From Minisyncoccota bacterium (lineage in GTDB: Bacteria > Patescibacteriota > Minisyncoccia > Phycocordibacterales > JAQTLZ01): a DNA stretch of 64,000 bases. A program made the position numbers and the translations under genes. The notes beneath the pieces are model-generated. The model had not been told where the DNA came from and did no database searches. It saw only the letters and a list, made by a program, of their open reading frames with translations. Positions 8,959 through 33,953 of the stretch are shown piece by piece. Position 1 is the stretch's first letter. Each line of letters begins with the position of its first letter. The stretch spans positions 121,841 to 185,840 of the forward strand of contig JAQTLZ010000002.1 in assembly GCA_028714635.1 (NCBI GenBank), in the 5' to 3' direction.

Positions 8959-9014
8959 AAAAGCGCCCTTTTTTCATTCTCTTTATGATATTCTAAATGC
9001 ATATTTTCATTACT

Positions 9015-9632
9015 ATGCCGGAGAAGAAAAAGAAAAAATCGAAACATATCCACGTCAAAGATGTCTATTTTGCGGATATGGGCGGGAAGATGAAAAAGGG
9101 ATTTGGACGCTCTCTCGTTAGGAAAATTTTTCATCGGCCTGTTTTTAAGCGCGAAATTCATCACAAGACTTTCTCGGCAGATTTTAGCGCTACAAAACTT
9201 CGTTGGTACTCCAATCTTTTGAATATGTTCTACTTGAAGCTCGATGGTACCGCTTCCTGTTTTTTTACCGATGAAGGAACGCTCGTGATTATTTTCATGG
9301 TTTGGGGAGATCCCGATGCGGAAGAATTTTTCGAAATGCCGGAGATGAAAGGTGAATTTGTGGAGGATAGGGAAGCGACCCAGAAGAAAAAGAAAAAGAG
9401 TTTGAAGGTGGATAAGGATTCAGTGAAGGAGGAAGTGAAAGATGACGGGTATCACCTTCAATATGAAGAGACGTATAAAGATCACGGAAAAGAAGTGAGA
9501 ATGTTTGAGCATGTGATTTATTCCGGAATTGATAAGCTGGTTTTCCGGGCGATTGTCCCACCGAAAGTTTTGCCGGAGACTCTTGATGATATTTTGGCGA
9601 TTGCAAAGTCGCTTAGAATAAAGGTAACTTAA
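9015..9632 (+). CDS. Hypothetical Lys-rich protein
   Basis: 205-aa ORF with no recognisable motif. Alternative start at 8997. Followed by a strong terminator. Confidence 0.55.
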   Translation: MPEKKKKKSKHIHVKDVYFADMGGKMKKGFGRSLVRKIFHRPVFKREIHHKTFSADFSATKLRWYSNLLNMFYLKLDGTASCFFTDEGTLVIIFMVWGDPDAEEFFEMPEMKGEFVEDREATQKKKKKSLKVDKDSVKEEVKDDGYHLQYEETYKDHGKEVRMFEHVIYSGIDKLVFRAIVPPKVLPETLDDILAIAKSLRIKVT

Positions 9633-9646
9633 TAAAAGACAGAGAA

Positions 9647-9689
9647 GCCCTGCCCGACGAAGTCGGGCAGGGCTGTTGCGTTTTTTTTT
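9647..9689 (+). terminator. Intrinsic terminator
   Basis: GCCCTGCCCGAC-GAA-GTCGGGCAGGGC 12-bp stem followed by T9. Confidence 0.85.
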
Positions 9690-9770
9690 CGTAACGAGTA
9701 GGGTAAAGAGCGGAAGGTAACGGCGAAAACCTTTAATTTCGCTACTGTTTTTTGTGGGAGGGCTAGTAAT

Positions 9771-10526
9771 ATGTCGCCTGTGAATAGTGATAGGGCATAC
9801 GTGCCAATTTACTTGGCACTGGACAAGAAGGACTGGGAGCAAGCATCTCCGCTCCTTCGCACGCTCGGCAATCGCATTGATGGAGTCAAGATCCATCGCA
9901 TCTGGGATGAGCTTGGCGCGAAATCTGTTTCGATGATTCGCGACCTTGGTGTCCCTGATGCCTGGGTTGATCTCAAGCTTTTTGATACGCCGGACACCGC
10001 GGCCGAACGCGCCGAACAGGTCAAGAAAGCTGGCGCCAAAATTTTGACCGTACACGCCAAGGGCGAAGTCGAAATGATGATGGCTGCGGTCAAGAACGGT
10101 CCGGAACTGGTTCTCGCCATCACGGAACTTACTTCGCTTACGGCGGAGCAGGTGGAAGTGGGCGGTGGCCTCACGCCTAAATCGGCCGTGCTTCATTGGG
10201 CGCGTGTTGCCAAGCTGGGGACTGTTGGTGGAGTCGTTACTTCCGCACTGGAAGTGGGCATGCTCTCGAAACGACCGGAACTCAAGGGTTTCGTTCTGGC
10301 TGTCCCGGGCACGCGCTCTGCGGGCGTGGACGTCAACGACCAGAAGCGTTCGGATACGCCTTACAACGCGGTGCTTGCGGGCGCAGGACTTATCGTCGCT
10401 GGTCGGCAGGTGACTGCCGCGGAAGACCCCGTTACCGCTATCGAAGCGCTTCGGGAAGAAGTCAACAAGGCGAGTGATGAGCGGCTTCGTCTCTTGCAGG
10501 AGATGGGAAAGAAGAAAGTCGCGTAA
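9771..10526 (+). CDS. pyrF: Orotidine 5'-phosphate decarboxylase
   Basis: IYLALD motif; DLKLFDTPDT matches the OMPDC DLKxHDIPNT signature; ILTVHAKGEVEMM matches VNVHASGGARMM. GGGAGGG RBS. GC-rich (~58%). Confidence 0.8.
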   Translation: MSPVNSDRAYVPIYLALDKKDWEQASPLLRTLGNRIDGVKIHRIWDELGAKSVSMIRDLGVPDAWVDLKLFDTPDTAAERAEQVKKAGAKILTVHAKGEVEMMMAAVKNGPELVLAITELTSLTAEQVEVGGGLTPKSAVLHWARVAKLGTVGGVVTSALEVGMLSKRPELKGFVLAVPGTRSAGVDVNDQKRSDTPYNAVLAGAGLIVAGRQVTAAEDPVTAIEALREEVNKASDERLRLLQEMGKKKVA

Positions 10527-10555
10527 CAACCCGGCTCACCCCGCCCATCGGCATT

Positions 10556-11431
10556 GTGCCGACGGGCGGGAAAGCCGAAGACAGAAGACAAAGAAAGGAG
10601 AGTACCTTGCATAAGGACCAAATAAGTCAGACGGCGACGTCTCTGATCCATTTCGATCGAGACACGCCTGTGCTGGAAATCCTCCGTCTCTGTGGTGGAG
10701 TCTACCTCTGCCCTAAGGATGCGGCGGGGAAACGTGTCGGCCCGCTCGTTGGGTACGCTGGAAAAAGCCCGCGCCTGAAGACTAATCTCGTGGGGGATAT
10801 CTACGCGAATTTCTCCACGGCCGAGCGCTACTGGCACGTCATGGCTGAGTTCGCGCGGCGTCTCGTCGAGAACCCGAGATTCCAGGAGATTCTTCCGAGA
10901 CTGGACGGTCTCTGTGGGATGCCCATGGGCGGGATTACATATTCGTCGCACCTTGCGCGAGCATGTGATCGTACGGGGATCTTTCTGGAAAAGCTGGTCA
11001 CCGCGGTGGCGAACCCGATCGAGGGGACGAAGGAAGAGTCCATTCTGGTGGCCGGTCGCTGCGAGATTATCCTTGGAGCCAACTACGCGATCGTCGAGGA
11101 CGTTACCAATAACTTTTCCACCACGCTGAAAGCGATCGGTCTGATCGAAAAAGCTGGCGGAAAGGTCATTGCCATCTGCAGTATCCTGAACCGTTCACCG
11201 AAGCATACGTCTGACTTTCCGCTTCCGGACGGTCGGGAAATTCCGGTCATCTCGGCTTACCAAGAGCCGTTCCCGGAATTTGAGACGGATGACGAGGCCG
11301 TTGCGGCGGACATTGCCGCTGGAAACGTGATCTGGAAGCCAAAGGAAAATTGGCCCAAGCTCATGACCGCGATGGATGCTGCGCGTGAGACGGCGCTAGC
11401 GAATCAGTCGGACAAGCCGTCCGGTTCGTAA
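10556..11431 (+). CDS. Phosphoribosyltransferase-like protein with degenerate PRPP motif (possible divergent OPRT)
   Basis: Type I PRTase pattern: ...GGITYSS... then YAIVEDVTNNFSTT in place of VLIVDDVxTTGGT. GC-rich. True start uncertain (10556 to ~10604). Confidence 0.6.
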   Translation: MPTGGKAEDRRQRKESTLHKDQISQTATSLIHFDRDTPVLEILRLCGGVYLCPKDAAGKRVGPLVGYAGKSPRLKTNLVGDIYANFSTAERYWHVMAEFARRLVENPRFQEILPRLDGLCGMPMGGITYSSHLARACDRTGIFLEKLVTAVANPIEGTKEESILVAGRCEIILGANYAIVEDVTNNFSTTLKAIGLIEKAGGKVIAICSILNRSPKHTSDFPLPDGREIPVISAYQEPFPEFETDDEAVAADIAAGNVIWKPKENWPKLMTAMDAARETALANQSDKPSGS

Positions 11432-11459
11432 GTTGTATTCGAATCAATTGTTTCTTAGT

Positions 11460-11494
11460 GCAGAGTCGCTCGCCCGGACTCTGCGCTTTTTTAT
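11460..11494 (+). terminator. Intrinsic terminator
   Basis: GCAGAGTC-GCTCGCCCG-GACTCTGC hairpin followed by GCTTTTTTATTT. Confidence 0.7.
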
Positions 11495-11522
11495 TTGTCT
11501 GAATTTTGTTACAGTTGCCAGC

Positions 11523-12434
11523 ATGAAATCAGAACTCATGAGTTTCCACACGAAAGACAAGCTTGAATTGCCGGGGCTTTTATATGAACCAGCACGAAAG
11601 AGTAATAAAGTAGCCATATTTCTTCATGGAAACGGCAATGGATCTGTTTTTAATAATCCTGTTTTGCAAAATACTATTGGTGACGCGCTGACGAAAAAGG
11701 GTATTGCTTATTTCCCATTCAACAATCGCGGGTCTGGGTATATCAGGAGTTTCAAAAAAATGGTGGACGGAAAGAAAGTCCGCCGGAATCTTGGCATGGC
11801 ATTTGAGCTTATTAAGGATTGTGTGATTGATATAGATGCCGCGCTTGCGGCCCTGCGCAAGCGCGGCTACTCCGAATTCTACTTACTCGGTGTTTCGACG
11901 GGAGCGAACAAAATCTGCGTCTACAACTACTACAAACCGAAAAATATTTTCTCAAAATTTATTTTACTCGCTCCAGGCGACGATGTCGGCGGGTATCTCG
12001 ATATGTGGGGTCCGCAGAAATTCGGCGCAATGCTTAAGATGTCGAAAGATAAGATCAAAGCAGGGAAGGGCGACGAGCTTGTTCCGCAAAATCTTTCCAG
12101 CTACAACTTTATTTCATTTAAATCTCTGTATGACATGATCAATCCCGATGGGAACTACAATGTTTTTCCGTATTTTGAAGTTTTGCATAATCTCGACCTA
12201 ACGAAAAAGAAAAAAATTTGGCGAGAATACCGGAGTCTCAAAAAACCAACCCTTGTTCTTATGCCAGGAAGGGACGAGTATTGTTATGGAAAGATAAAAG
12301 AAGTAGTGAAAATGCTCAAAGGAAATGGCAGCGCCACGAATTTCAATTTCAAAATTCTTCCCGGCTCATTGCACGGATTCTGGAAAAAAGAAAAAGAATT
12401 GGCAAAAATTCTCGCAGATTGGATTTTTGGGTAA
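11523..12434 (+). CDS. Alpha/beta-fold hydrolase
   Basis: GVSTG nucleophile elbow (GxSxG), HGNGNG oxyanion-region motif. ATG 11523 (MKSELMSF) chosen because the upstream listed ATG 11433 lies before the 11460-11494 terminator. Confidence 0.8.
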   Translation: MKSELMSFHTKDKLELPGLLYEPARKSNKVAIFLHGNGNGSVFNNPVLQNTIGDALTKKGIAYFPFNNRGSGYIRSFKKMVDGKKVRRNLGMAFELIKDCVIDIDAALAALRKRGYSEFYLLGVSTGANKICVYNYYKPKNIFSKFILLAPGDDVGGYLDMWGPQKFGAMLKMSKDKIKAGKGDELVPQNLSSYNFISFKSLYDMINPDGNYNVFPYFEVLHNLDLTKKKKIWREYRSLKKPTLVLMPGRDEYCYGKIKEVVKMLKGNGSATNFNFKILPGSLHGFWKKEKELAKILADWIFG

Positions 12435-12481: not shown

Positions 12482-12613
12482 CGGAGTTGTGGCCGCGGGG
12501 GCCTCTCGTCCGGTCATAATACGACTGCAAGCTGATCGAGTGGGACTCGATGGGTCTTGCATTTCTATAAAGTACGAAGTCGCGGCGCTCGTAGCTGGGC
12601 TGCTGTGGGTCAT

Positions 12614-13174
12614 TCAGGCCAGAACGACTTGACCGCGGCGGGCCGTCTCGATTGAGATCGGCTCGCACCTTTGCGTCGGCGCGTCTTCAGGCAACCTCGC
12701 ACAGGTGTCTTCCGGGGGCATCGGGATCGTCTCCACCTTGTAATTCTGGTGGAAGACCACCGATTTAGGCTGAATGATCGTGTCGTCGTCGATGGTGATT
12801 GTCGTCTTCGTGGCCGTGACCGACAACTTCGCATTTACGATCGAGATGAGGACCCAATGGAACTCTGCACCCTGTGGCATGAGAGCGATCCCTCGCTTCA
12901 TGATGGCGTCCAGTTCGGCGTGGAAGCTGGACTTTGCCACGATGAAGACCGGTGGCAACTCCTTCGGCTGAACGGCATTGGACGGCTGATGCGGGTTCCA
13001 GTGTGCGATTTCAACCTGGCACATCCTCGCTTCAGCGGGGACCGTTTCTCCGGCTGCGACCCGAATAGGATCCAGGGTGATGCTTCCCCCTGCACCGACG
13101 CCGATGTGGCGCTCTCCGAGCTTCTTTTGCAGCACTACTGCTTGCTGCGATACGGCTAACGATCGTTCCCGCAT
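12614..13174 (-). CDS. Hypothetical protein in a GC-rich island
   Basis: Minus-strand ORF more protein-like than the Arg-rich + frame. ATG (MRERSLAV) preceded by GAAAGG; the ORF track extends to a TTG at 13201. No family recognised. Confidence 0.4.
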   Translation of the reverse strand: MRERSLAVSQQAVVLQKKLGERHIGVGAGGSITLDPIRVAAGETVPAEARMCQVEIAHWNPHQPSNAVQPKELPPVFIVAKSSFHAELDAIMKRGIALMPQGAEFHWVLISIVNAKLSVTATKTTITIDDDTIIQPKSVVFHQNYKVETIPMPPEDTCARLPEDAPTQRCEPISIETARRGQVVLA

Positions 13175-13301
13175 AACTGCCTGCCTTTCTCCCCATGTCA
13201 AGCATGAGGTACTGTAATCTCCCCGTATCGACGGGGCAAACTTCTCTCATAATTCTATCTTTTTATCTCGCCTCACGCTATAGTAGGGGAAATAAATTTT
13301 T

Positions 13302-14946: not shown

Positions 14947-15813
14947 ATGATCCTTCTCGACGGAAAAAAAGTAAGTAAAGACAGGGCTCTTGAGCTGAAA
15001 GCGCAAGTTTCGGCTTTTAGAGTTGCTCCAACACTTGCCATTCTTCAAGTGGGGGATGATGAACGTTCGAGCGCCTATATCCGCCAGAAGAAACTTTTTG
15101 GAGAGAAAATTGGGTGCAAAGTGTTGCATGTTACATTTGAAAGCACTGTCTCGCATTCTGACATTATTGAAAAGGTAAGGGAATTGAATGCTGATATATC
15201 TGTCCATGGAATTATTTTGCAGTTGCCAATTCCTACTAATCTCGATTCGCGCTCTATTATTGAGGCGATTGATCCGAAGAAAGATGTAGACGGACTCCAC
15301 TCTGAAAACGCGAAAAAACTTACGGATGGAGATGTAAGCGGATTTATTCCTGCAACAGCCAAAGGGGTGATATCACTTCTTGATGCGTATAAAATTCCAA
15401 TTGCGGGAAAGAAGGCAACGGTAGTGGGACGCTCGGCTCTCGTGGGTACTCCGACAGCACTTTGTCTTACAAATCGCGGCGCGAATGTGACAGTGGTACA
15501 TCGCGCAACTGTGAATATTCCCGCAAAAACAAAACAAGCTGACATCCTTGTGGTTGCGGCAGGACATGCAAAGCTTATCGACGCTCGTCACGTTTCGGCA
15601 GGTCAGAGCGTTATTGATGTAGGAATCAATTTGGTGACGGGAGAAAAACTTGAGGATGAAATTCCCAAGAAAAAGTTGGTGGGTGATGTGGATTTTGATG
15701 AGGTGAAAGATATCGTTGGGGCTATTTCTCCGGTACCGGGAGGAGTGGGGCCGATGACTGTTCTTTCTTTGTTTGAAAATCTTATCCTCGCCTACGAAAG
15801 GGCTATTAATTAG
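14947..15813 (+). CDS. folD: Bifunctional methylene-THF dehydrogenase/methenyl-THF cyclohydrolase
   Basis: Full-length FolD pattern: YIRQKKLFGEKIG, DVDGLH, VVGRSALVGTPTA, PVPGGVGPMTV. Confidence 0.95.
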   Translation: MILLDGKKVSKDRALELKAQVSAFRVAPTLAILQVGDDERSSAYIRQKKLFGEKIGCKVLHVTFESTVSHSDIIEKVRELNADISVHGIILQLPIPTNLDSRSIIEAIDPKKDVDGLHSENAKKLTDGDVSGFIPATAKGVISLLDAYKIPIAGKKATVVGRSALVGTPTALCLTNRGANVTVVHRATVNIPAKTKQADILVVAAGHAKLIDARHVSAGQSVIDVGINLVTGEKLEDEIPKKKLVGDVDFDEVKDIVGAISPVPGGVGPMTVLSLFENLILAYERAIN

Positions 15814-23884: not shown

Positions 23885-24376
23885 CTATTTTTCCAAAGTG
23901 ACCCAAGAATATTTCAAATCGCCAAACATTTTTTCTTCTCGGAAAGTTTCTTTCTTGAATTCGTTTTCGTATTCTGGGAAAAATGTGTCGGCTGGGATTT
24001 CAGAGTGAATGATTGTGAGGTAGAGCCTGTCTGCGAAGGGGAGTGCTTGTTTGTAAATTTCTCCTCCACCGATGACGAAGATTTCGGCCGCGCCTCCTTC
24101 AGAGGCGCGGCCTTTTTCGAGCGCCTCTTCGATCGTATTTGTCACAATGCACCCTTCCGCTTTGAAATCTTTATTTCTGGTGACGATGATATTTGCACGG
24201 CCGGGGAGCGCCCGTCCTATGGACTCATACGTTTTTCGTCCCATGATAATGGGATGCCCCATCGTAAGCGCTTTAAACCGCTTCAAATCCTCTGGAATCC
24301 GCCACAGAAGCTTATTTTCCGTGCCGAGGCCACGGGTTTTCTCGCTTATTCCAGCTATCATGTTTACTTTTGACAT
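23885..24376 (-). CDS. folA: Dihydrofolate reductase
   Basis: MIAGISEKTRGLGTENKLLWRIPEDLKRFKALTMGHPIIMGRKTYESIG...IFVIGGGEIY: canonical DHFR. Confidence 0.95.
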   Translation of the reverse strand: MSKVNMIAGISEKTRGLGTENKLLWRIPEDLKRFKALTMGHPIIMGRKTYESIGRALPGRANIIVTRNKDFKAEGCIVTNTIEEALEKGRASEGGAAEIFVIGGGEIYKQALPFADRLYLTIIHSEIPADTFFPEYENEFKKETFREEKMFGDLKYSWVTLEK

Positions 24377-24446
24377 AGTAGGGTAATTTCTTTTCTTATT
24401 ATTTTCAAACTGTAAACCTCTTACGAAATACTATATACTATTATCT

Positions 24447-25040
24447 ATGTCAGAAGCTAATATAAAAAAGATCTTAAGCAATACTGCTGATCTGAAAACT
24501 CGTTTTATCGGTGATTACAAGGAATTAAAGAAAATCGTCGACACATTTAAAAAAATCGGTTATCGAATTGTTTTGACTCAAGGCGTGTATGACCTTATCC
24601 ACGAAGGCCACGCAGCTTATCTTGAAAAAGCTCGCTCTTACGGAGATCTTTTGATTGTCGGCGTTGATTCTGATGAACTCACGAAGCAGAGAAAGGGGCC
24701 GAATCGCCCTATAGTTCCGCAACAAGAAAGAATGAAGATGCTTGTTCATTTACGGCACGTTGATATTGTGACGATACGCGAAGCGCATCACAAGATCGGC
24801 GATCTTATCCGTCTCGTGAAGCCTGATGTGCTCATTGTTTCGAAAAGCACCAGCGATTTTACGAACAAAATGGTCAACGAATATACGCCGTATTGCAAAA
24901 AAATTGTCTCTCTTATGCCGCAGGCAACCACTTCGACATCAGCTCGCGTTAGAAATCTTACTCTCGAAGGAGCAGAGAAACTGGCCGGAGAGATCTCCAA
25001 ACTCACTGAAAATTTCATATTTAAGATCAGGCAAGCGTAA
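24447..25040 (+). CDS. Cytidylyl/adenylyltransferase-like nucleotidyltransferase (HxGH class)
   Basis: LTQGVYDLIHEGH (HxGH) and a Rossmann-like fold pattern. Stop overlaps the next ATG (TAATG). Confidence 0.8.
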   Translation: MSEANIKKILSNTADLKTRFIGDYKELKKIVDTFKKIGYRIVLTQGVYDLIHEGHAAYLEKARSYGDLLIVGVDSDELTKQRKGPNRPIVPQQERMKMLVHLRHVDIVTIREAHHKIGDLIRLVKPDVLIVSKSTSDFTNKMVNEYTPYCKKIVSLMPQATTSTSARVRNLTLEGAEKLAGEISKLTENFIFKIRQA

Positions 25041-25903
25041 TGAAAAAGGTTCTCGTCGCTTTTGTTCCGGTTATCCATCTCGGGTATCTCGATTTTTTCA
25101 AGAAGCATAACTGTCCGCTCTATGTCATTGGGTCGGAATTTTATGCTGAATTTCCAAAGTTGGAACGAGATGTCCGCGCTCTTTCTCCGGAAATAATTTC
25201 TACGGCACTTAAAGCGATAAAAATTCCGAGAGAAGTAGTTCTTCTTACCAAAAAGGATCTTGGAGATTTGAAAAAAGTTTCAATTGTCATGCCGGATGAT
25301 GAGCTCTCGAGGGAATTTGCAGAAAAGTATCTGAAGGGCACGAAAATTGATTTCGAATCAATCTTTTTGCGCTGGAATAAAATTATTACTACGTCGGAAT
25401 TTACAGTGCCTCCCAATCGAACTATTTCCTACGAAACTTTCGATAGAGAAATGTTTCCAAAGGTAAGAAAGGAAGCAAAAAAAAGTTCTGATTGGTGGAG
25501 GCAAAACGGCGCCATCCTTCTTCGAGACGGGAAAATCCTTGTGGAGAGCCATAATCGTCATCTTCCAACGGATTTAAGCATGGATGTTTTCGGCGATCCG
25601 CGGAGCAATTTTGATGCAGGGGAGAAGCTTACGAAAAAAATCGGAGGAATGGAGATAACTCCGAATGATCTCTCCACCGTCATCCATGCAGAAGCATCTG
25701 TTATTGGGATTGCAGCGAAAAAAGGGATTCCTCTCGAAGGGACATCGCTTTATTGCACCACTTTTCCTTGCCCCACTTGCGCGAAATTAGTTGCCGAAGC
25801 CGGAATTAAAAAAGTTTTCTATGAAAAAGGGTATTCAATTCTCGATGCCGAAAGAATTCTCCAGGCTTTCGGGATTGAAATAATTTTAGTAAAAGAAAAG
25901 TAA
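25040..25903 (+). CDS. dCMP/cytidine deaminase fused to an N-terminal degenerate nucleotidyltransferase-like domain
   Basis: C-terminal zinc-dependent deaminase motifs VIHAEASVI (HAE) and TFPCPTCAKLV (PCxxC). N-terminal ~140 aa with VAFVPVIHLGYL resembling a decayed HxGH motif. Confidence 0.85.
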   Translation: MKKVLVAFVPVIHLGYLDFFKKHNCPLYVIGSEFYAEFPKLERDVRALSPEIISTALKAIKIPREVVLLTKKDLGDLKKVSIVMPDDELSREFAEKYLKGTKIDFESIFLRWNKIITTSEFTVPPNRTISYETFDREMFPKVRKEAKKSSDWWRQNGAILLRDGKILVESHNRHLPTDLSMDVFGDPRSNFDAGEKLTKKIGGMEITPNDLSTVIHAEASVIGIAAKKGIPLEGTSLYCTTFPCPTCAKLVAEAGIKKVFYEKGYSILDAERILQAFGIEIILVKEK

Positions 25904-25905
25904 TC

Positions 25906-26358
25906 TCACTCCTTCTCTTCCCATTTGAACCCAAATTGTTTTTCCGCTTTCAGGTCGGGAGAAATAAGATGAGCGTGCAGATGTTGCACCGATGCTCCCG
26001 TGTATCTCGTGTCCCCGAATCTCATATGAAGTATGCCGCCGGGGGTTTTCTTTTTCTGTATAAAATCTTTCATCATACTGCGCAGTTCCTCCCACGCTTC
26101 TTTGGACATTTCTGTTATATCCGAGATATGTTTTCTATGGATAAAAAGGAGGTGAACTTTGGTATTTTTGTACGGATACATATTATCAGTGGCAATCCAG
26201 TAGGCGCCTTTTTGATGTATCGGCCTCTCGTGATGTTTATGGAGTTCTTCTTCGCAAAAAGGGCACACTTTTTGCTTAGCGATCTTTTTGATCACCTCCT
26301 CGTATACTCCACGCTTTGAGTTCGCGATATTTACGAAAGATTTTTTCGTTTTTGCCAT
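25906..26358 (-). CDS. HIT-family nucleotide hydrolase
   Basis: Histidine triad HLHAHLI near the C-terminus; CPFC zinc-ribbon-like motif. Confidence 0.9.
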   Translation of the reverse strand: MAKTKKSFVNIANSKRGVYEEVIKKIAKQKVCPFCEEELHKHHERPIHQKGAYWIATDNMYPYKNTKVHLLFIHRKHISDITEMSKEAWEELRSMMKDFIQKKKTPGGILHMRFGDTRYTGASVQHLHAHLISPDLKAEKQFGFKWEEKE

Positions 26359-26369
26359 ACAGATGATTT

Positions 26370-27281
26370 TTAAACTGGGGTCGGAATAATCATCGCTGGG
26401 TGAGGCTCGTAGTCGGAGAGCGTGAAATGTTCAGGTTTGAAATCAAAAATGTCTTTTATATTTGGGTCGAGTGTTACTGTTGGGAGTCGCTTTGGTTCTC
26501 GTTTCAAAAGTTCCTCGACATAGCTGTATTGGCTTTCGTAAATATGGGCGTCAGAAAAAGTGTGTACCAATTCTTTCATGGTGTAGCCGAGAAGCTGTGC
26601 CACCATCATACCGAATCCTGCATACTGAATGATGTTAAATGGCACTCCGACAGGGAAGTCCGCGCTTCTTTGGAAGTGATGAATAACAATTTCTTTTGTT
26701 TCGGGGAAAGCAAGAATGTGAATCCAGCCGTGGCATGGTGCAACCACTACTTTTCTTTTGAGGGTACTGTGCTGGATGGCGTATTGCGGGATCCATGGGC
26801 TTATAAAATGGGTTCGCAGGTATGGGCGTTCTTTCAGCTGTTTAATTACGTTTTCAATCTGGTTAAAGGGTGTTCCTTCTTTGGTAGGGAAGCTTGCCCA
26901 TGCCGCTCCGTATGAACCGTCTCCCAAATCTCCTTCGGGAAGTCCGAAGATGTCGCACTTTTCTTTGGTTACCCATCGTCCCCACCATTTACAGCCGAAT
27001 TTTTTCAACTCCTCATTGGTGCGAGCACCGTGAAGGAAAGCAATGTGTTCTGCGAGAGCTCCCTGGAAAAATTTTCCAGACAAGTCGCGTTCGGTGATAA
27101 CAGGAAAGCCGTTCTCGATAGGGTAGCGAAGCTGGACTCCCACGAGCATTTTCGCTTTTTCTCCCATTTTTCCGGTAGGAAGCCGGCTATGAATAGGAAC
27201 AATCTCGCGCCCCTCTTTCATTATCCTCCTTAGAATATCTTGATACTGGCTATCAGGAGTTCGGTCTTTGAGTGGTTTCAT
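26370..27281 (-). CDS. thyA: Thymidylate synthase (ThyA type)
   Basis: VAPCHGW (catalytic Cys), QRSADFPVGVPFNI (Arg and Asn of dUMP-specific ThyA), DAHIYESQ. Start set at MKPLKDR (27281) by homology with ThyA N-termini; the ORF extends upstream to 27380. Confidence 0.95.
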   Translation of the reverse strand: MKPLKDRTPDSQYQDILRRIMKEGREIVPIHSRLPTGKMGEKAKMLVGVQLRYPIENGFPVITERDLSGKFFQGALAEHIAFLHGARTNEELKKFGCKWWGRWVTKEKCDIFGLPEGDLGDGSYGAAWASFPTKEGTPFNQIENVIKQLKERPYLRTHFISPWIPQYAIQHSTLKRKVVVAPCHGWIHILAFPETKEIVIHHFQRSADFPVGVPFNIIQYAGFGMMVAQLLGYTMKELVHTFSDAHIYESQYSYVEELLKREPKRLPTVTLDPNIKDIFDFKPEHFTLSDYEPHPAMIIPTPV

Positions 27282-27288
27282 TGCAAGT

Positions 27289-27294
27289 ATTATA
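27289..27294 (-). promoter_or_regulatory. -10 hexamer TATAAT for thyA (leaderless arrangement)
   Basis: On the minus strand, TATAAT lies 7 nt upstream of the thyA ATG. Confidence 0.45.
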
Positions 27295-27345
27295 GAGGGT
27301 TTTAAAAAGAAAAGAAAATCGCCACAATGGGTGCCCTCGCTATAC

Positions 27346-27373
27346 TTGACAATATAATCATATATGTTAAAAT
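27346..27373 (+). promoter_or_regulatory. Sigma70-like promoter TTGACA-16-TAAAAT
   Basis: Consensus -35 TTGACA at 27346-27351; TGtTAAAAT extended -10 at 27365-27373. ~60 nt upstream of GTG 27435. Confidence 0.55.
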
Positions 27374-27434
27374 AATACAAGATTCCGTCCTTTCAAAACG
27401 GAACATTTTGGGGAAACAAACGTGGAGGTGGAGC

Positions 27435-28235
27435 GTGAGAAAGATTCCGTTTGCTGTTGTCATTATTATGGTGGTTGTGGGGTTTGGTGCAGGCGCTTTC
27501 CTGCTCATCTCCCACGACATGGAGCGCGTGGAGAAAATACAAGCATTGGGGTTCAAGGGAAGGCTTGTTGGGGCAGATCGGCACATCGAAATTGCCGAGC
27601 ATCCGCCGGGCCAGTTTCTTCCAGGCTACACGGTCGGCCATATCATGTGCCGATCCTATTTTGAAAAGGACTGGCGTGTTGCTGGGACAGGCACGCAGTT
27701 TCCCGACGAGAGCGTCGTAACCGCTATGCATGTTTTCGGCAAGTGCGAGGAACAGAAGCGCTATTGGGGATTTCGCCCCCTAACTTCGGATACTATTCGA
27801 GGGAAGGGGCTAATCATACCAATCGTCTCGATGTCTCCTACGAAGGCAGGAGACGATTCAGCAATCTGTGTTCTCGGCAAGCCGGGCGAAGACGAATACC
27901 GAAATCCTTTTTGCGGCCTCTTCTCCGAGAAAGAGGACTTGACGGAGTTTCAAGAAGGTAAGGACGGCAAAATCAACGCCGTACCGTACCAGGTCAAAGT
28001 TCGGTTTCTCTCTCGTCCAGATGTCGTCCTACAGGGGCAATATCTCATGGATGCACGCCCTGGAGCACAGTATCTCCTGTTTCCCGTGCAGGGCGGGGTG
28101 GCATCTGGGGAGAGTGGCACTCTCGGTATCATCGAGGGCGATCAAACCAAGTTCCTTTTGCTTACACAGCAAAGGGCGCGTCGGTTTGGGGTCGCGTTTG
28201 TGGTGAACCGAAACCAACTTGTTCCGAAGAAGTAA
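27435..28235 (+). CDS. Membrane-anchored protein (GC-rich), possible distant trypsin-like serine peptidase
   Basis: GGAGGTGGAG RBS then GTG 27435; the ORF track lists an alternative upstream ATG at 27327. N-terminal TM helix. TAMHVFGKC (His-like site) and GESGT (GDSG-like) are suggestive only. GC ~55%. Confidence 0.55.
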   Translation: MRKIPFAVVIIMVVVGFGAGAFLLISHDMERVEKIQALGFKGRLVGADRHIEIAEHPPGQFLPGYTVGHIMCRSYFEKDWRVAGTGTQFPDESVVTAMHVFGKCEEQKRYWGFRPLTSDTIRGKGLIIPIVSMSPTKAGDDSAICVLGKPGEDEYRNPFCGLFSEKEDLTEFQEGKDGKINAVPYQVKVRFLSRPDVVLQGQYLMDARPGAQYLLFPVQGGVASGESGTLGIIEGDQTKFLLLTQQRARRFGVAFVVNRNQLVPKK

Positions 28236-28250
28236 GAAAGTAGAATAAAA

Positions 28251-28295
28251 TCCGCTAAACAGACATCCGATTTGTTTAGCGGATGTTTGTTTTCC
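28251..28295 (+). terminator. Intrinsic terminator
   Basis: TCCGCTAAACA-(11 nt)-TGTTTAGCGGA followed by TGTTTGTTTT. Confidence 0.6.
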
Positions 28296-28396
28296 GGCGT
28301 TTTTTTATACAAAAAACATGCTAATATGGAAGAAATTAAGCATTTCTATGATTTAACTCCCGAAAGCCGAATATTACTCGATAATCAGCCATTTCT

Positions 28397-29668
28397 ATGA
28401 CTCAAAATTTAAAATTCATAAAGAAACAAGATCCGGCGGTCTATAAAGCGATAGTGGGGGAGGAAAAACGGGAAGCGGAAGGGCTTGAGCTCATTCCTTC
28501 GGAAAACTATGTTTCGCAGGCTGTGCTTGAAGCGAATGGCTCTGTTTTCACCAATAAATATTCTGAAGGATATATCGGGCGAAGATATTATGGCGGACAA
28601 GAATTTACTGATACAGTAGAGAAAATTGCTATCGAAAGAGCTTGCAAACTTTTTGGCGCAAAATATGCGAATGTTCAGACGCATTCTGGCGCACCGGCAA
28701 ACATCGGTCTCTATTTTGCTCTCATGAATCCGGGCGATACGATTCTCGGAATGGATCTCTCACACGGAGGGCACCTCACTCACGGACATCCTGTGACTTC
28801 GATTTCGAAAATTTTCAAATTCGTCCGCTACCAGATGAAAAATATCGAGACAGGTGAGATTGATTACGTGGGACTTCGGGAGACTGCGCTCAAAGAAAAA
28901 CCGAAAGTCATTCTCGCCGGCTATTCTGCATATCCGCGTGAGCTTGATTATGCGAAGTTTGTAGAAATTGCACGCGAAGTCGGCGCAGTCTGTGTGATGG
29001 ATATCGCTCATATCGCAGGACTCATTGCAGGCAAGGCGGTCAAGAATCCTTTTGATTATGGATTTGATGTGATGACGAGTACGACACACAAAACTTTGCG
29101 TGGTCCTCGCGGCGGTTTGATTTTGGTACGCGAGAATGAAGAGCTCGCAAAGAAAATTGATAAATCGGTTTTCCCCGGGCTTCAAGGTGGACCGCACATG
29201 CATACTGTCGCAGCAAAAGCAGTAGCGTTTGGTGAAGCACTGAAACCCGCTTTCAAAAAATATGCCGAGCAGATTCTCAAAAACGCGAAAGCAATGGAGG
29301 CGGTTTTCAAGCGAGAAAAAATTCGAATGATTACAGGTGGAACTTCAAATCATCTCATTCTCGCCGATGTGTGGGGCTCGCTCGACGTTTCTGGTAAAGA
29401 AGCGCAAACAGTACTCGATGAAGTGGGAATTACGCTCAATATGAATATGATCGCGGGGGATACAAGAAAGCCAATGGACCCATCAGGAATTCGCTTTGGT
29501 ACGCCAGCAATCACAACACGAGGATTTAAAGAAAAAGAATGTGCACGTGTCGCCGAATTGATTATTGAAACTCTAAAAAATAAAAGTGACGAAAAGAAAA
29601 AGAAAGCAATTCACACGGAAATAATAAAACTGGCAAAAAAGTTTCCGATACCAGATACATTCGTATGA
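28397..29668 (+). CDS. glyA: Serine hydroxymethyltransferase
   Basis: LIPSENY, YSEGYIGRRYYGG, TTHKTLRGPRGG (PLP lysine region). Confidence 0.95.
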   Translation: MTQNLKFIKKQDPAVYKAIVGEEKREAEGLELIPSENYVSQAVLEANGSVFTNKYSEGYIGRRYYGGQEFTDTVEKIAIERACKLFGAKYANVQTHSGAPANIGLYFALMNPGDTILGMDLSHGGHLTHGHPVTSISKIFKFVRYQMKNIETGEIDYVGLRETALKEKPKVILAGYSAYPRELDYAKFVEIAREVGAVCVMDIAHIAGLIAGKAVKNPFDYGFDVMTSTTHKTLRGPRGGLILVRENEELAKKIDKSVFPGLQGGPHMHTVAAKAVAFGEALKPAFKKYAEQILKNAKAMEAVFKREKIRMITGGTSNHLILADVWGSLDVSGKEAQTVLDEVGITLNMNMIAGDTRKPMDPSGIRFGTPAITTRGFKEKECARVAELIIETLKNKSDEKKKKAIHTEIIKLAKKFPIPDTFV

Positions 29669-29715
29669 TGTTATGATTTATAAGTCACTTTAATAACTAA
29701 TAAGTCAAATTAAAC

Positions 29716-30000
29716 ATGGAAGGTTATGAAATGGATCCAAAAGGATATTTAAAGCCCACGAAAGACCCTGGAGCGCCGTATTATATTCCCGGTCAGACGC
29801 CAAGTGGTGTAAAGTTTTTTATAAGTATGCCACTCAGCCCAGATGAACGAGTAGAAGTTCTCATACCAAAAGGAACAAGAGAGGAGGTGGAAGGTTGTAT
29901 TGAAAAGGTCTTTGCCGATATGAAGACTAAGGGAGTAACGATTAATGCTTATGTGATTCGCGAAATGGATTCGGAGCCTGAATCAAAAAAGCGCTTTTAG
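29716..30000 (+). CDS. Hypothetical small protein
   Basis: 94-aa ORF between glyA and tmk, no motif recognised. Confidence 0.45.
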   Translation: MEGYEMDPKGYLKPTKDPGAPYYIPGQTPSGVKFFISMPLSPDERVEVLIPKGTREEVEGCIEKVFADMKTKGVTINAYVIREMDSEPESKKRF

Positions 30001-30048
30001 ATTATTTCTTTTTTCCCAAGAAGTGTCCATTTTGCTAGTATTTTAGGT

Positions 30049-30723
30049 ATGAACAAACTCGGACGACTTATCATAATCGAAGGGCTTGATGGGGCAGGGA
30101 AAGCTGTTCAGACTAAGCTTCTTACCGAAGCTCTGCAAAAAGCTGGTAAAGAAGTGACGCTTTTTGATTTTCCTCGCTACACCACTTCGATGTTTGGAAA
30201 GTTGACCGGCGAAGCGCTTCAGGGCATGTACGGGGATTTCCGGAATATGTCCCCATTTCTTTCTTCGCTTCCGTTCGTGCTTGACCGAGCGACTGCAAAA
30301 AATGATATTGAGAAAGCGCTCGAGAAAGGAGATGTTATTTGCAATCGCTATACGCCTTCGAATCTCGCCTATCAATCTGCGAAACTCCCACCATCGCAGA
30401 GGAAAAAATTTGTAGACTTTTTAGAGAAAGCGGAATACGGGGAAATTGGAATTCCCAAGCCGGATGTTGTTTTCTATCTCTCCGTTCCCGTTGAGACCGC
30501 ACTTGGGCTCAATGCTCAAAAGCCAAAACGGGTGTATTTGAAAAAAGCTGGAGATAAAGACCAGCATGAAGACGACGAAATGTATCAAAAACAAGTAATT
30601 GAAGTTTATATGTCTTTCGCAAAAGAGAAAAAGAACTGGCATATCGTAGAATGTCTGAAGGGAGGCAAGCTTCTTTCACCGGAAGAAATTCATCTGAAAA
30701 TAATGGCAACACTCGCAAATTAA
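30049..30723 (+). CDS. tmk: Thymidylate kinase
   Basis: P-loop IIIEGLDGAGKAVQ, DRY-like CNRYTPS lid region. Confidence 0.9.
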   Translation: MNKLGRLIIIEGLDGAGKAVQTKLLTEALQKAGKEVTLFDFPRYTTSMFGKLTGEALQGMYGDFRNMSPFLSSLPFVLDRATAKNDIEKALEKGDVICNRYTPSNLAYQSAKLPPSQRKKFVDFLEKAEYGEIGIPKPDVVFYLSVPVETALGLNAQKPKRVYLKKAGDKDQHEDDEMYQKQVIEVYMSFAKEKKNWHIVECLKGGKLLSPEEIHLKIMATLAN

Positions 30724-30738
30724 AGGTATCATCTAGCA

Positions 30739-31329
30739 ATGTCAGACCAAAATCTTCGATTCTTATTTGAAATAGCGACGCTCCGAAATCTCGACCGCTC
30801 ATGGAGGCAGTATATCGGTATGGATGTTGAAAGTGTTCTAGAACATATTGTTCGTGTGATGTTTCTCGCGCTTCTTATCGCCCGTAAAGAAGGGGTGAAG
30901 AATGAAGAGAAAATTATGAAAATGGTGCTTGTTCACGATCTTGCGGAAACGAGAACGAGCGATCATATGTATGTTCATAAGGTATATGTGAAAGCGGACG
31001 AGAAAAAGGCCGCCGACCATCTCTTTTTCGGAACGCTTTTTGGAGATTTGCGAAAAGATATCCTTCATGAGTATGAAGAGCGGAAATCTATTGAGGCGAA
31101 AATTGTAAAAGATGCCGATAATCTTGAATGCGATATGGAACTCAAAGAATTGGAAGCGAGGGGGTCTACAGTGCGAAAGAAACTCGCTTCTGGGAGGAGA
31201 CTGGTGCGAGACAAGAAACTCTACACCAAAACCGCACGGAAGCTTTGGGATGCGATTCAAAAAGCAGATGTGGATGAGTGGCATCTTACGAGTAATAAGT
31301 GGCTTAAGATTCCGAATGCTGGGAAATAA
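30739..31329 (+). CDS. HD-domain phosphohydrolase (YfbR-like 5'-deoxynucleotidase type)
   Basis: H...HDLAE...D metal-binding pattern (VHDLAETRTSDH). Confidence 0.85.
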   Translation: MSDQNLRFLFEIATLRNLDRSWRQYIGMDVESVLEHIVRVMFLALLIARKEGVKNEEKIMKMVLVHDLAETRTSDHMYVHKVYVKADEKKAADHLFFGTLFGDLRKDILHEYEERKSIEAKIVKDADNLECDMELKELEARGSTVRKKLASGRRLVRDKKLYTKTARKLWDAIQKADVDEWHLTSNKWLKIPNAGK

Positions 31330-31332
31330 ACA

Positions 31333-33036
31333 ATGAAAGAGAAATTAGAAATTTCGGTAAAGAAAGCTCTGAAAACACTTTCTATTGAAGCGGAAAGTGT
31401 TTCTTTCGAGCACCCAACAGAAATTTCTCACGGGGATTATTCGACGAATATTGCTCTTGCACTTTCGAAACATTCAAAAGAAAATCCTCGGGTTTTGGCG
31501 GAAAAAATTGTGGGGGAAATTAATAAAAAACTTCCCAAAGAGATTCACAAAGTTGAAGTTGCCGGGGCGGGATTTATTAATTTTTTTCTTTCGAAGGAAT
31601 TTTTTGTAGAGCAAACGGCCGAAATTTTGGCGGAAGGCCAAAATTTCGGCCGAAACAGCTCTCTTAAAAAAGAAAAAGTAGTTATTGAATACACAAACCC
31701 AAATCCTTTCAAGCAATTTCATATCGGTCATTTGATGAATAATGCTATAGGCGAATCACTCTCGAGAATCGTCGATGCAAGCGGAGCTAAACTCACTCGC
31801 GTGAATTATCAGGGAGATGTTGGGCTTCATGTGGCGAAAGCTCTTTATGGAATGATGCACTCTTCACGCCCCCTTCCCAAAGAAGAATCACTCGAAAAGC
31901 AGATCGCATATCTTGGTGAATCCTATGTCGCAGGCGCGACTGCATATGAAGAAAATGAGGAAGCAAAAAAAGAAATTCAGGAAATAAATAAAAAAGTTTT
32001 TGAAAAAAGTGATAAGGAAATAAATAAGCTCTATGAATGGGGGAGAAAAATCAGTCTTGAAGATTTTGAGCGTCTGTATCAGAAACTCGGGACAAAGTTT
32101 GAGCATTATTTTTTTGAAAGCGAAGCTGGGGCGATAGGAAAGAAAATTGTGCTTGAATATCTTGAAAAAGGCGTTTTTGAGAAAAGTGATGGAGCTATTA
32201 TCTTTCCTGGTGAGAAACATGCCCTGCATACACGCGTTTTCATTAATTCACAAGGCTTGCCGACATATGAGGCAAAAGAGCTCGGAGTTTCGCAGATGAA
32301 ATATGACATGTATCGTTACGATCTTTCCTTGGTGGTTGCGGGAAACGAGATCAATGATTATTTCAAGGTACTTACAAGAGTGATCGCAATTTTGTACCCA
32401 GAACTTGCAGACAAAATAAAACATATACCAAATGGAATGCTTCGCCTTGCCAGCGGGAAAATGTCCTCTCGAAAGGGAAATGTGATATTAGGGAATGATT
32501 TGATTTCCGATGTCGAGAAATTAGTGGAAGAAAAAATGAAAGACCGCGAACTTCCAGCTGGTCAGAAAAAAGAAATTGTAGAAAAAGTGGCGATCGGCGC
32601 TATCAAGTATTCGATTCTTCGCCAATCACCCGGCAAAGATATTATTTTTGATCTTGATAAATCACTTTCATTCGAAGGAGATTCGGGACCATATCTGCAA
32701 TACACAGCAGTCCGCGCAAATTCTGTGCTAGAAAAAGCGAAAGAGATGAAAATCAAATCGAGCGCTAAAGATGGAGAAGGAGAAGTGAATCTTGTTGAAA
32801 AAATGTTGTATCGTTTTCCCGAAATTGTCGAGCTTTCTCTTAAAGAATACGCTCCACAATACATTGCGACATATCTCATCGAACTTGCGGGAGCTTTCAA
32901 TTCATATTATGGAAATACAAAAATTATCAATACCGATCCGGGTGTGTCATACAGACTTTCCCTTACGGAAGCTGTAAAAATAGTTCTCGCCAACGGCCTT
33001 AACCTTCTAGGCATACAAGTGCCTGAAAAAATGTAA
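31333..33036 (+). CDS. argS: Arginyl-tRNA synthetase
   Basis: Class I HIGH (FHIGHLMN), KMSSRKG (KMSK variant), C-terminal DALR-type anticodon-binding region. Confidence 0.95.
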   Translation: MKEKLEISVKKALKTLSIEAESVSFEHPTEISHGDYSTNIALALSKHSKENPRVLAEKIVGEINKKLPKEIHKVEVAGAGFINFFLSKEFFVEQTAEILAEGQNFGRNSSLKKEKVVIEYTNPNPFKQFHIGHLMNNAIGESLSRIVDASGAKLTRVNYQGDVGLHVAKALYGMMHSSRPLPKEESLEKQIAYLGESYVAGATAYEENEEAKKEIQEINKKVFEKSDKEINKLYEWGRKISLEDFERLYQKLGTKFEHYFFESEAGAIGKKIVLEYLEKGVFEKSDGAIIFPGEKHALHTRVFINSQGLPTYEAKELGVSQMKYDMYRYDLSLVVAGNEINDYFKVLTRVIAILYPELADKIKHIPNGMLRLASGKMSSRKGNVILGNDLISDVEKLVEEKMKDRELPAGQKKEIVEKVAIGAIKYSILRQSPGKDIIFDLDKSLSFEGDSGPYLQYTAVRANSVLEKAKEMKIKSSAKDGEGEVNLVEKMLYRFPEIVELSLKEYAPQYIATYLIELAGAFNSYYGNTKIINTDPGVSYRLSLTEAVKIVLANGLNLLGIQVPEKM

Positions 33037-33045
33037 TATACATAT

Positions 33046-33378
33046 ATGACTGAAGCAATTCCAGGACAAAATAGTGGGAATCCAAGATCGGCGGATAGAC
33101 AGGAGAAAATTAACGAGATGATTTTGGCACGCAATGGGGTGTTAGGATTAGTGAAAACTCCAAAGCAGAGAGAGATTGTTCGAGAAGAGAATCAGCAATT
33201 TATTATTCAACTCAGGAAAAACAACCCAGGGCGCGACACCCTTGCAAAATATCAAGCATGGCAGATTTTCTCAAGTGGCACAGATATCCAGGATGAGAAA
33301 GCTCCGGAGCTTGATTTCCCGGGAGAAGATTCTCTTATTGAATTTTATAAAAGACTTGAAGAAAAGTTGAAATCATGA
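33046..33378 (+). CDS. Hypothetical protein
   Basis: 110-aa ORF; stop overlaps the maf start (ATGA coupling). Confidence 0.5.
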   Translation: MTEAIPGQNSGNPRSADRQEKINEMILARNGVLGLVKTPKQREIVREENQQFIIQLRKNNPGRDTLAKYQAWQIFSSGTDIQDEKAPELDFPGEDSLIEFYKRLEEKLKS

Positions 33379-33953
33379 GAAAAATAATTCTCGCATCAGG
33401 TTCTCCGCGCCGGAAAGAAATTTTAGGAAGGCTCGGCATTCCTTTTGAGGTCGTGCAAAGCGATTTCCAGGAGTTTATTGATCCCAAAATATCTCCGGGT
33501 GCGTTAGCAGAAAAGCTCGCGATCGGAAAAGCAAAAGCGGTCGCTTTCAAATACCCCGACGCAATTATTATCGGAGCGGATACTGTCGTAGCGCTTCATG
33601 GCGAAGCGATGGGGAAACCCAAGACGCCAGAGGAGGCTGTGGCTATGCTCACGCGCCTTTCGGGAGAAACCCATTCGGTATTTACAGGCTTTACCATCAT
33701 GAGTACAAAGACAGGGAGATCAATCACTGACGTTTGTGAATCAAAAGTTACTTTCAAACAGCTTGATCCCGCTAGTATTGAAAAATATGTTATAAGCGGA
33801 GAACCATTAGAGATGGCTGGAGGCTACGCGATACAGAGTGGAGCGAAAGATTTCGTGGAAAAATACGAAGGAGATTACAATAACATTGTCGGACTTCCTC
33901 TTACTCTCGTGCGGAACGCTCTCAAGATGTTTGATGTCAGTGTGTCCTCATAA
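33375..33953 (+). CDS. maf: Maf-like nucleoside triphosphate pyrophosphatase
   Basis: ILASGSPRRKEIL N-terminus, GADTVV, typical Maf length. Confidence 0.9.
   Translation: MRKIILASGSPRRKEILGRLGIPFEVVQSDFQEFIDPKISPGALAEKLAIGKAKAVAFKYPDAIIIGADTVVALHGEAMGKPKTPEEAVAMLTRLSGETHSVFTGFTIMSTKTGRSITDVCESKVTFKQLDPASIEKYVISGEPLEMAGGYAIQSGAKDFVEKYEGDYNNIVGLPLTLVRNALKMFDVSVSS

Follow-up and report, generated by a model that had tools for sequence, protein, structure and literature searches.

The stretch analysed here is 64 kb of contig JAQTLZ010000002.1 (the whole stretch is referred to as “the window”), from a Candidatus Paceibacterota genome within the Patescibacteria/candidate phyla radiation (CPR). Its segment 9771–11431 is most likely a self-contained two-gene operon, in which pyrF is followed by a non-canonical analogue of pyrE. 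We refer to the second gene (10607–11431), which has a phosphoribosyltransferase (PRT) fold, as gene 2, and to pyrF and gene 2 together as the cassette. We consider it probable that gene 2 encodes an orotate phosphoribosyltransferase (OPRT) that makes orotidine 5ʹ-monophosphate (OMP) from orotate and phosphoribosyl pyrophosphate (PRPP), and that PyrF then converts OMP to uridine monophosphate (UMP). Family conservation, fold, synteny and gene fusions are the basis for this role; from them we infer both the enzymatic activity and the source of orotate.

Conservation and fold of the gene 2 family

Gene 2 lies on the plus strand and encodes a 274-aa protein that we describe as a non-canonical, OPRT-like PRT from its homologs, fold and profile matches. 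The protein is identical to MDD5068427.1 and MDD5356910.1, which come from metagenome-assembled genomes (MAGs) of Candidatus Pacebacteria/Paceibacterota and are annotated “hypothetical protein”. A collection of 5.8 billion proteins contains at least 147 homologs with 36–54% identity, and the nearest relative other than the identical entries shares only 54% identity. An exhaustive profile search of 1.84 billion representatives found 304 family clusters at E ≤ 1e-30 and 438 at E ≤ 1e-10, with clusters defined at 50% identity. No Pfam or NCBIfam model is dedicated to the family, which is so far unnamed; its members appear as “hypothetical protein” or “phosphoribosyltransferase” at NCBI and are named inconsistently at JGI. 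Full-text literature searches (OPRT with Patescibacteria, HP1257, and Lichenibacterium pyrimidine) found no description of the family, and those on CPR, pyrimidine and pyrE found only general statements that CPR bacteria often lack the de novo part.

The 5-phosphate turn with its glycine counts as a hallmark of type-I PRTs. In gene 2, the corresponding codons (11096–11125, plus strand), located by alignment to PyrE and adenine phosphoribosyltransferase (APRT), encode the variant PRPP loop E164-D165-V-T-N168-N169-F170-S-T-T173. A preliminary description of the window, made from the sequence alone, had picked out the peptide VEDVTNNFSTT, which is indeed present in the translation, and had recognized a type-I PRT layout with a non-consensus PRPP loop, as our alignments bear out. 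E164, D165, N168 and N169 are invariant in a 30-sequence alignment of the family, and T172 and T173 are almost so. Across 260 family members, conservation reaches 90% or more at 31 columns, including GPLVGY, VG.xY.N...E, P.GG (PMGG), K129, R151-H152, E164-D165, N168-N169-F170, N195-R196-S197, Q227 and PK..W. The loop pattern E-D-[VIL]-x-N-N-F-[ST]-T-T is almost invariant, and none of the 260 members has a canonical T-x-G turn. The exact motif found in the window, EDVTNNFSTT, is the second commonest variant (35 of 260). At the 31 conserved columns the window copy deviates twice (H152C and Q227T); two or more such deviations are found in 34% of members. As judged from these alignments, purifying selection maintains the NNFSTT loop as a family signature; it is not a sign of decay.

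An AlphaFold (AF2) model of gene 2, built from the family alignment, has a mean predicted local distance difference test score (pLDDT) of 93.7 and a predicted template modelling score (pTM) of 0.88. When this model was compared with the PDB using Foldseek, the first 15 ranks were all OPRTs, headed by 4paw (Helicobacter pylori HP1257). The family profile gave the same picture at the sequence level, with E-values of 2.5e-11 for the OPRT 4paw and 3e-7 for human OPRT, and with APRTs from 4e-6. For each family member tested, the best NCBIfam model was pyrE_Therm, always well under its cutoff. The Pfam PRT model PF00156 did not match the window copy of gene 2; it matched 20 of 30 relatives at E ≤ 0.01 (best 3.7e-8). 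These comparisons place the gene 2 family as a branch of the type-I PRTs, with Thermus/Helicobacter-type OPRTs as its predicted closest known relatives. The distance is nevertheless large. Identity to TIGR01367 (pyrE_Therm) and to 4paw HP1257 is only 13–15%, the PRPP loop reads NNFSTT rather than TTGKS, the flexible loop has an insertion of ~11 residues, and the N-terminal hood is longer, with the motifs GPLVGYAG and VGDIYANF. Hence, by alignment, gene 2 is not a canonical OPRT.

Gene 2 has its proposed reaction and pathway position in common with the enterobacterial and eukaryotic OPRTs (PyrE, TIGR00336, b3642; human UMPS, 2wns). We aligned the family to Escherichia coli PyrE (b3642, sequence from NC_000913) with hhalign. 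E164-D165 corresponds to D124-D125, R196 to R156 and K129 to K100, and the C-terminal helix also aligns, whereas T128-A129-G130-T131 is replaced by N168-N169-F170-S171. The gene 2 loop was also aligned to the APRT loop DDVVSTGST. Each residue of the acidic pair ahead of the PRPP loop, E164-D165, is at least 90% conserved across the 260 relatives, and the family thus appears to keep the pair that holds the ribose hydroxyls. R196, which lies in an L-N-R-S motif and is likewise at least 90% conserved, aligns with the orotate-binding R156, with LDRE of the human enzyme and with ANRG of 4paw. The flexible catalytic loop of the family is 8–11 residues longer and contains conserved (R/K)142-E-x-S and R151-H152 (Cys152 in the window copy). 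In the N-terminal hood the HMMER and hhalign alignments disagree, so an equivalent of K26 was not assigned.

PyrF, genomic context and the proposed OPRT function

The first gene of the cassette (9771–10526, plus strand) encodes a 251-aa type-1 orotidine-5ʹ-phosphate decarboxylase (OMPDC), as indicated by PF00215, TIGR01740 and motif alignment. Its hidden Markov model (HMM) scores are 112.4 bits for PF00215 (cutoff 27) and 100 bits for TIGR01740 (cutoff 92.3); on NF001273 it scores 140.8, under the stricter cutoff of 193. The motifs ALD, GVK, DLKLFD(T)P, LTS, PGTR, DQKR..TP and VAGR all align by column with the solved OMPDCs 8dop, 3tfx and 1eix. The catalytic Asp and Lys, the D-x-K-x-x-D motif, the ring-binding Ser and the phosphate-gripper Q and R are kept, and the only motif change relative to the solved enzymes is I to T after the second Asp. 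Since all catalytic and phosphate-gripper motifs are kept, the substrate should be 5ʹ-phosphorylated OMP. The product is identical to NCBI MDD5356909.1, likewise from a Candidatus Pacebacteria/Paceibacterota MAG and annotated “orotidine-5ʹ-phosphate decarboxylase”. All of this agrees with the OMPDC assignment in the preliminary description, whose peptides ALD, DLKLFDTPDT and TVHAKGEVEMM are found in the translation. We conclude that gene 1 is, on its predicted protein, a bona fide and ordinary type-1 OMPDC.

The pairing of gene 2 with an OMPDC is a feature of the family. We scanned one genome for each of 185,579 species and found relatives in 197 of them, mostly Patescibacteria. Most of the best 80 loci are likewise from Patescibacteria, and ~15 belong to the high-GC genera Lichenihabitans and Lichenibacterium (Hyphomicrobiales), among them that of the cultured L. 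minor RmlP026. For synteny we built HMMs from neighbour clusters and validated them with Pfam and NCBIfam, an approach that also catches type-2 OMPDCs, and we restricted the count to the 73 loci with at least 900 nt on both sides of the PRT gene. Of these 73 loci, 63 have an OMPDC of type 1 or type 2 within 300 nt of the PRT gene, usually just upstream and in the same orientation; pyrD occurs close by in 24 loci and pyrB in 14. The same pyrF–PRT pair is found in the three closest relatives of the window protein and in complete 1-Mb genomes. In Lichenibacterium and Lichenihabitans, the operon order is pyrD – pyrC-like – pyrF – PRT-like gene – pyrB, where pyrF scores 234 on TIGR02127 (cutoff 110.6), pyrB scores 256 on TIGR00670 (cutoff 237) and the pyrC-like gene is a TIGR00856 homolog. 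In this order, the gene 2 homolog fills the sole vacant step, that of OPRT.

Several details of these loci are worth recording in their own right. The pyrF of the Lichenibacterium/Lichenihabitans operon is of type 2 in L. minor RmlP026 (locus L046), L005, L019, L038, L044 and others, and some of these operons continue with a ureidoglycolate-lyase-like gene after pyrB. Many third-party annotation (TPA) MAGs labelled “uncultured Gammaproteobacteria” or “Candidatus Saccharibacteria” (L006, L009, L011, L014, L024, L032, L033 and others) carry a Patescibacteria-type cassette on short, low-GC contigs, and their taxonomic labels look unreliable.

Fusions of the two genes occur in at least eight clusters at 50% identity (P0228, P0248, P0281, P0282, P0293, P0295, P0299 and P0303). 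The fused proteins are ~490–570 aa long, with the OMPDC at the N terminus and the gene 2 family domain at the C terminus. The OMPDC half is type-1-like in seven clusters and type 2 in one, which indicates at least two independent fusion events, and the NNF loop is kept in all. The domain order is the same as in the known bifunctional OMPDC-OPRT enzymes (bacterial NF004034; Leishmania UMP synthase, 3qw4). However, the fusions reach at most 30 bits on NF004034 against a cutoff of 656, and their PRT half has the NNF loop; hence, they are independent fusions built on the gene 2 family.

With canonical OPRTs as queries, no further pyrE-like open reading frame (ORF) was detected, either in the window or across ~1.1 Mb of related loci. 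A Pfam survey of the 57 ORFs of the window found no pyrB, pyrC, pyrD, carAB or second PRT, in agreement with the preliminary description, which had seen no other de novo pyrimidine genes there. The survey did find FolD, DHFR, dCMP deaminase, ThyA, SHMT, Tmk, an HD-domain protein and Maf.

What would the cassette do in the cell? We propose that the gene 2 product condenses orotate and PRPP, yielding OMP, which PyrF then decarboxylates to UMP. The UMP would feed the products of the dCMP-deaminase, ThyA, DHFR, SHMT and Tmk genes located elsewhere in the window. Orotate could come from pyrBCD outside the window or, given the reduced genome, from the host or the environment. The 5-phosphate turn T-x-G-T would have been rebuilt as N-N-F-S-T-T, and 5-phosphate binding may have passed from the glycine-containing backbone cradle to the Asn, Asn, Ser and Thr side chains. 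The suggestion in the preliminary description that the module is possibly repurposed finds no support: adjacency to pyrF, the fusions and the pyrE slot in full pyr operons all point to an ordinary OPRT role.

Some observations weigh against the assignment as an OPRT. The curated OPRT models score far under cutoff for gene 2 (42.3 versus 150.25 for TIGR01367, and 16.5 versus 106.8 for TIGR00336). The hallmark glycine of the PRPP loop is Phe throughout the family. In the flexible loop, a conserved Glu stands opposite R99 of the enterobacterial OPRT; K103 and H105 lack a clear counterpart, and the residues at their positions are not conserved in the family. An alternative that would accommodate the altered loop is that gene 2 encodes a PyrF-coupled, PRT-fold enzyme that uses another donor, such as ribose-1,5-bisphosphate, or another acceptor, such as an orotate analogue, with the loop reflecting the change. 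A ribose-1,5-bisphosphate nucleotide-salvage route has reportedly been seen in many Patescibacteria. We regard this alternative as rather unlikely: PyrF partners, whether of type 1 or type 2, retain the canonical residues for OMP binding and the phosphate gripper, the conversion of orotate to OMP is the sole vacant step in the full pyr operons, and the acidic pair and the equivalent of the orotate-binding Arg are invariant.

PRT-fold regulators such as PyrR and PurR share with gene 2 both the fold and a nucleotide-biosynthesis operon setting, so gene 2 might instead be non-catalytic, acting either as a regulator that senses nucleotides or PRPP or as a subunit accessory to OMPDC. We think this very unlikely, since no DNA- or RNA-binding domain was detected, the residues at catalytic positions (the acidic pair, R196 and K129) are invariant, the gene sits in the pyrE slot with no other OPRT seen in the loci, and the protein is closer to OPRTs than to PyrR or PurR. 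Least credible is the interpretation in the preliminary description, that gene 2 is what is left of a decaying OPRT, with a degenerate PRPP loop, in a partial module acquired recently: the lack of a Pfam match in the window copy, the off-consensus loop and the changes H152C and Q227T at positions conserved in >90% of relatives fit such decay, but the ORF is intact, with a ribosome-binding site and a terminator, the loop motif is kept in 260 relatives at 36–54% identity, the window copy is a typical member, two deviations at conserved columns are ordinary, and the AF2 model is very confident. We rejected a pseudogene on the family-wide conservation.

GC excess and probable mobility of the cassette

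The cassette differs in composition from its surroundings. The G+C content of the entire window is 43.8%; that of the segment 9771–11431 is 57%, and that of the remainder is 44%. The preliminary description had put these figures at ~58% and ~40%, so that the island stands but the background was set too low. In 200-nt windows, G+C rises from ~0.44 at 9600–9799 to 0.54–0.63 between 9800 and 11499, and drops again to 0.39–0.45 by 11400–11699. Relative to the other 53 ORFs of the window (mean 0.437, standard deviation 0.037), pyrF (0.574, z = 3.7) and gene 2 (0.570, z = 3.6) are both GC-rich. The G+C content at third codon positions (GC3) is 0.62 for pyrF (z = 3.2) and 0.67 for gene 2 (z = 4.1), compared with 0.43 in the other ORFs, and synonymous-codon choice also departs from the norm of the 53 window genes (z = −2.2 and −2.5, respectively). 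The GC profile is thus not uniform, and the codon usage of the island deviates as well. An independent NCBI assembly (L089, GCA_028711105.1) is 100% identical over 9.9 kb, spans both island borders and has the same neighbour genes, and a 1.8-kb Logan contig (L090) is identical across both genes and their immediate flanks. Hence, the jump in GC content is not due to an assembly chimera, which we consider ruled out.

The cassette is not the only GC-rich sequence in this part of the window. A second GC-rich block, at 12500–13200, was overlooked in the preliminary description. This block (GC 0.585; GC3 0.71, z = 4.7) contains a minus-strand ORF (12614–13201) that encodes a 186/195-aa ORFan with no Pfam match. 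In a collection of 5.8 billion proteins, the ORFan matches nothing but its own entry (NCBI hypothetical protein PHS53_02075). A 162-aa plus-strand ORF overlaps it. A fatty-acid desaturase gene (PF00487, 7840–8958) has a raised G+C content of 0.50 and a GC3 of 0.57 (z = 2.3). The region 7.8–13.2 kb is therefore a mosaic, in which the GC-rich desaturase gene, cassette and ORFan are interleaved with host-like genes.

The GC excess also recurs in other genomes. Among 58 related loci with flanks below 55% G+C, the PRT gene is richer in GC than its flanks in 52 (mean +6.5 points), and pyrF in 41 of 47 (mean +6.9 points). The GC3 of the PRT gene lies 8.6 points above the median for the remaining ORFs of its locus (39 of 48 loci, p = 4e-7) and is the highest of the locus in 27 of 48. 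The GC3 offsets of the PRT gene and pyrF are correlated (r = 0.91). The excess is strong in the loci of the closest relatives. In locus L086, flank G+C is 0.376, compared with 0.626 for pyrF and 0.570 for the PRT gene; in L087 the values are 0.408, 0.542 and 0.540. The PRT proteins of these two loci are only ~54% identical to that of the window. Since the same excess is found in dozens of distant hosts, it belongs to the module and is not peculiar to this genome.

The likelier explanation is that pyrF and the PRT gene move between lineages as a unit, which would give the recurrent excess in GC and GC3. Neighbour genes vary from locus to locus, and when pyrF type is followed through a neighbour-joining tree built from the PRT proteins, it changes repeatedly. 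In the same tree, the Lichenihabitans sequences form one monophyletic group inside the Patescibacteria, which suggests a single inter-phylum transfer. Together, these observations indicate real mobility. With respect to the window copy, we consider it plausible, and on balance favoured, that the cassette was acquired horizontally. The preliminary description had proposed this, and the atypical composition and codon usage agree with it; mobility genes, att-like repeats and a near-identical donor were not found.

These negative results, and others, argue against a simple, recent transfer. No integrase or other mobility genes were found among the neighbours of the cassette, flanking att-like, direct or inverted repeats are present at chance level only, and no tRNA gene is adjacent, the sole tRNA gene of the window being at 1222–1293. 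The closest relative of the window copy, at 54% identity, is no near-identical donor. IMG/VR contains no relatives, and PLSDB contains only remote matches to canonical PRTs; we rejected a phage- or plasmid-borne cassette on these grounds. In addition, single acquisitions followed by amelioration do not readily account for a GC excess that persists over such deep divergence.

An alternative explanation, which we regard as possible but the less likely one, is that the GC excess is intrinsic to the cassette and is maintained by selection or mutation, through mRNA structure or stability or through expression-linked codon choice, and is no signature of transfer. This would account for an excess in 52 of 58 low-GC hosts over the whole family tree, and for its presence in relatives only ~54% identical, such as L086, where synonymous sites should long have ameliorated. 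It is also consistent with the failure to find mobility features, and with the finding that cassette GC tracks host GC (slope 0.73, r = 0.90). However, the excess is mostly at GC3 (+8.6 points, compared with +2 at second codon positions), and codon choice is atypical for the host. Neighbours differ at almost every locus, the type of pyrF switches, and Lichenihabitans is nested in Patescibacteria. The window also holds the GC-rich ORFan and the GC-enriched desaturase gene. On balance, horizontal acquisition remains a plausible and somewhat likelier explanation for the composition of the cassette.

A bolder interpretation combines both subjects. The NNF-loop family would be a mechanistically distinct OMP-forming enzyme, whose altered phosphate turn and longer catalytic loop could allow it either to use another activated ribose or to bind PRPP in a new way, and that travels with pyrF as a GC-rich mobile cassette; this cassette would have been exchanged repeatedly among Patescibacteria, and once into the free-living Hyphomicrobiales. 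We consider this combined interpretation unlikely.

Operon signals, neighbouring genes and significance

The signals around the two genes fit a self-contained operon on the plus strand. The left island border is marked by an intrinsic terminator (9646–9689; stem 9646–9674 plus T-run) that belongs to the preceding gene (8997–9632). It has a 13-bp stem with 10 GC pairs, followed by a T-run, and a predicted folding energy of −32.7 kcal/mol (z = −6.9). A Shine-Dalgarno-like GGGAGGG, read in the sequence at 9756–9762, lies 9 nt ahead of the ATG of pyrF. The right border is formed by the intrinsic terminator of the operon (11457–11494; stem 11457–11487 plus T-run), with an 11-bp stem, a 9-nt loop and a T-run (−19.1 kcal/mol, z = −3.3). 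Our pattern scan for terminators had a loop limit of 8 nt, so this hairpin was recognized by folding instead. The strong terminators that the preliminary description saw on either side of the island are thus both confirmed by folding.

Gene 2 has a Shine-Dalgarno sequence, AAGGAG, at 10595–10600 (plus strand, read in the sequence), 6 nt ahead of a TTG start codon. We place the start at this TTG (10607) and not at 10556; the resulting 274-aa product is the one that is identical to MDD5068427.1. Between the two genes, at 10532–10577 on the plus strand, the transcript is predicted to form a very stable GC-rich hairpin (−37.5 kcal/mol, z = −5.9 relative to shuffled sequences) with no T-run behind it. 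An Rfam scan of the window matched only tRNA-His, and the hairpin matches no known RNA family. This hairpin could stabilise the mRNA, mark a site of processing or serve in translational coupling.

Downstream of the cassette, an ORF listed from a TTG at 11433 (11433–12434) overlaps the cassette terminator. It encodes an alpha/beta-hydrolase (PF12146/DUF1749), whose start is more likely the ATG at 11524; the gene call in L089 (303 aa) likewise starts there. Elsewhere in the window, FolD is encoded at 14947–15813, and a dense cluster for the thymidylate cycle and pyrimidine interconversion lies at 23885–33953, with genes for DHFR, a cytidylyltransferase-like protein, HIT, ThyA, SHMT, Tmk, an HD-domain protein and Maf. 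The cluster includes a 287-aa dCMP-deaminase-domain protein whose N-terminal ~130 aa have no assignment, and a gene for ArgRS is interleaved in it. At 34514–37984 lies a gene for an 1156-aa class-I aminoacyl-tRNA synthetase (PF00133, Ile/Leu/Val/Met type), the catalytic domain of which is interrupted by a histidine-phosphatase domain (PF00300, residues 504–666).

What is the significance of a probable OPRT with a different PRPP loop? For enzymology, the family is a natural experiment, in which Asn-Asn-Phe stands family-wide in place of the glycine 5-phosphate turn. Its presence in the cultured genus Lichenibacterium makes genetics feasible. In dozens of low-GC hosts, the two genes share a GC3 excess that recurs and co-varies, a pattern that may reveal how small metabolic cassettes circulate among ultra-small bacteria.

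Metabolic reconstructions of Patescibacteria rest on curated HMMs, and these miss the gene 2 family. If the family is indeed an OPRT, many genomes that are scored as lacking pyrE hold the last two steps of UMP synthesis. Carriers of the cassette would then either possess the complete de novo pathway or take a shortcut by scavenging orotate, and estimates of the dependence of these bacteria on their hosts for pyrimidines would change.

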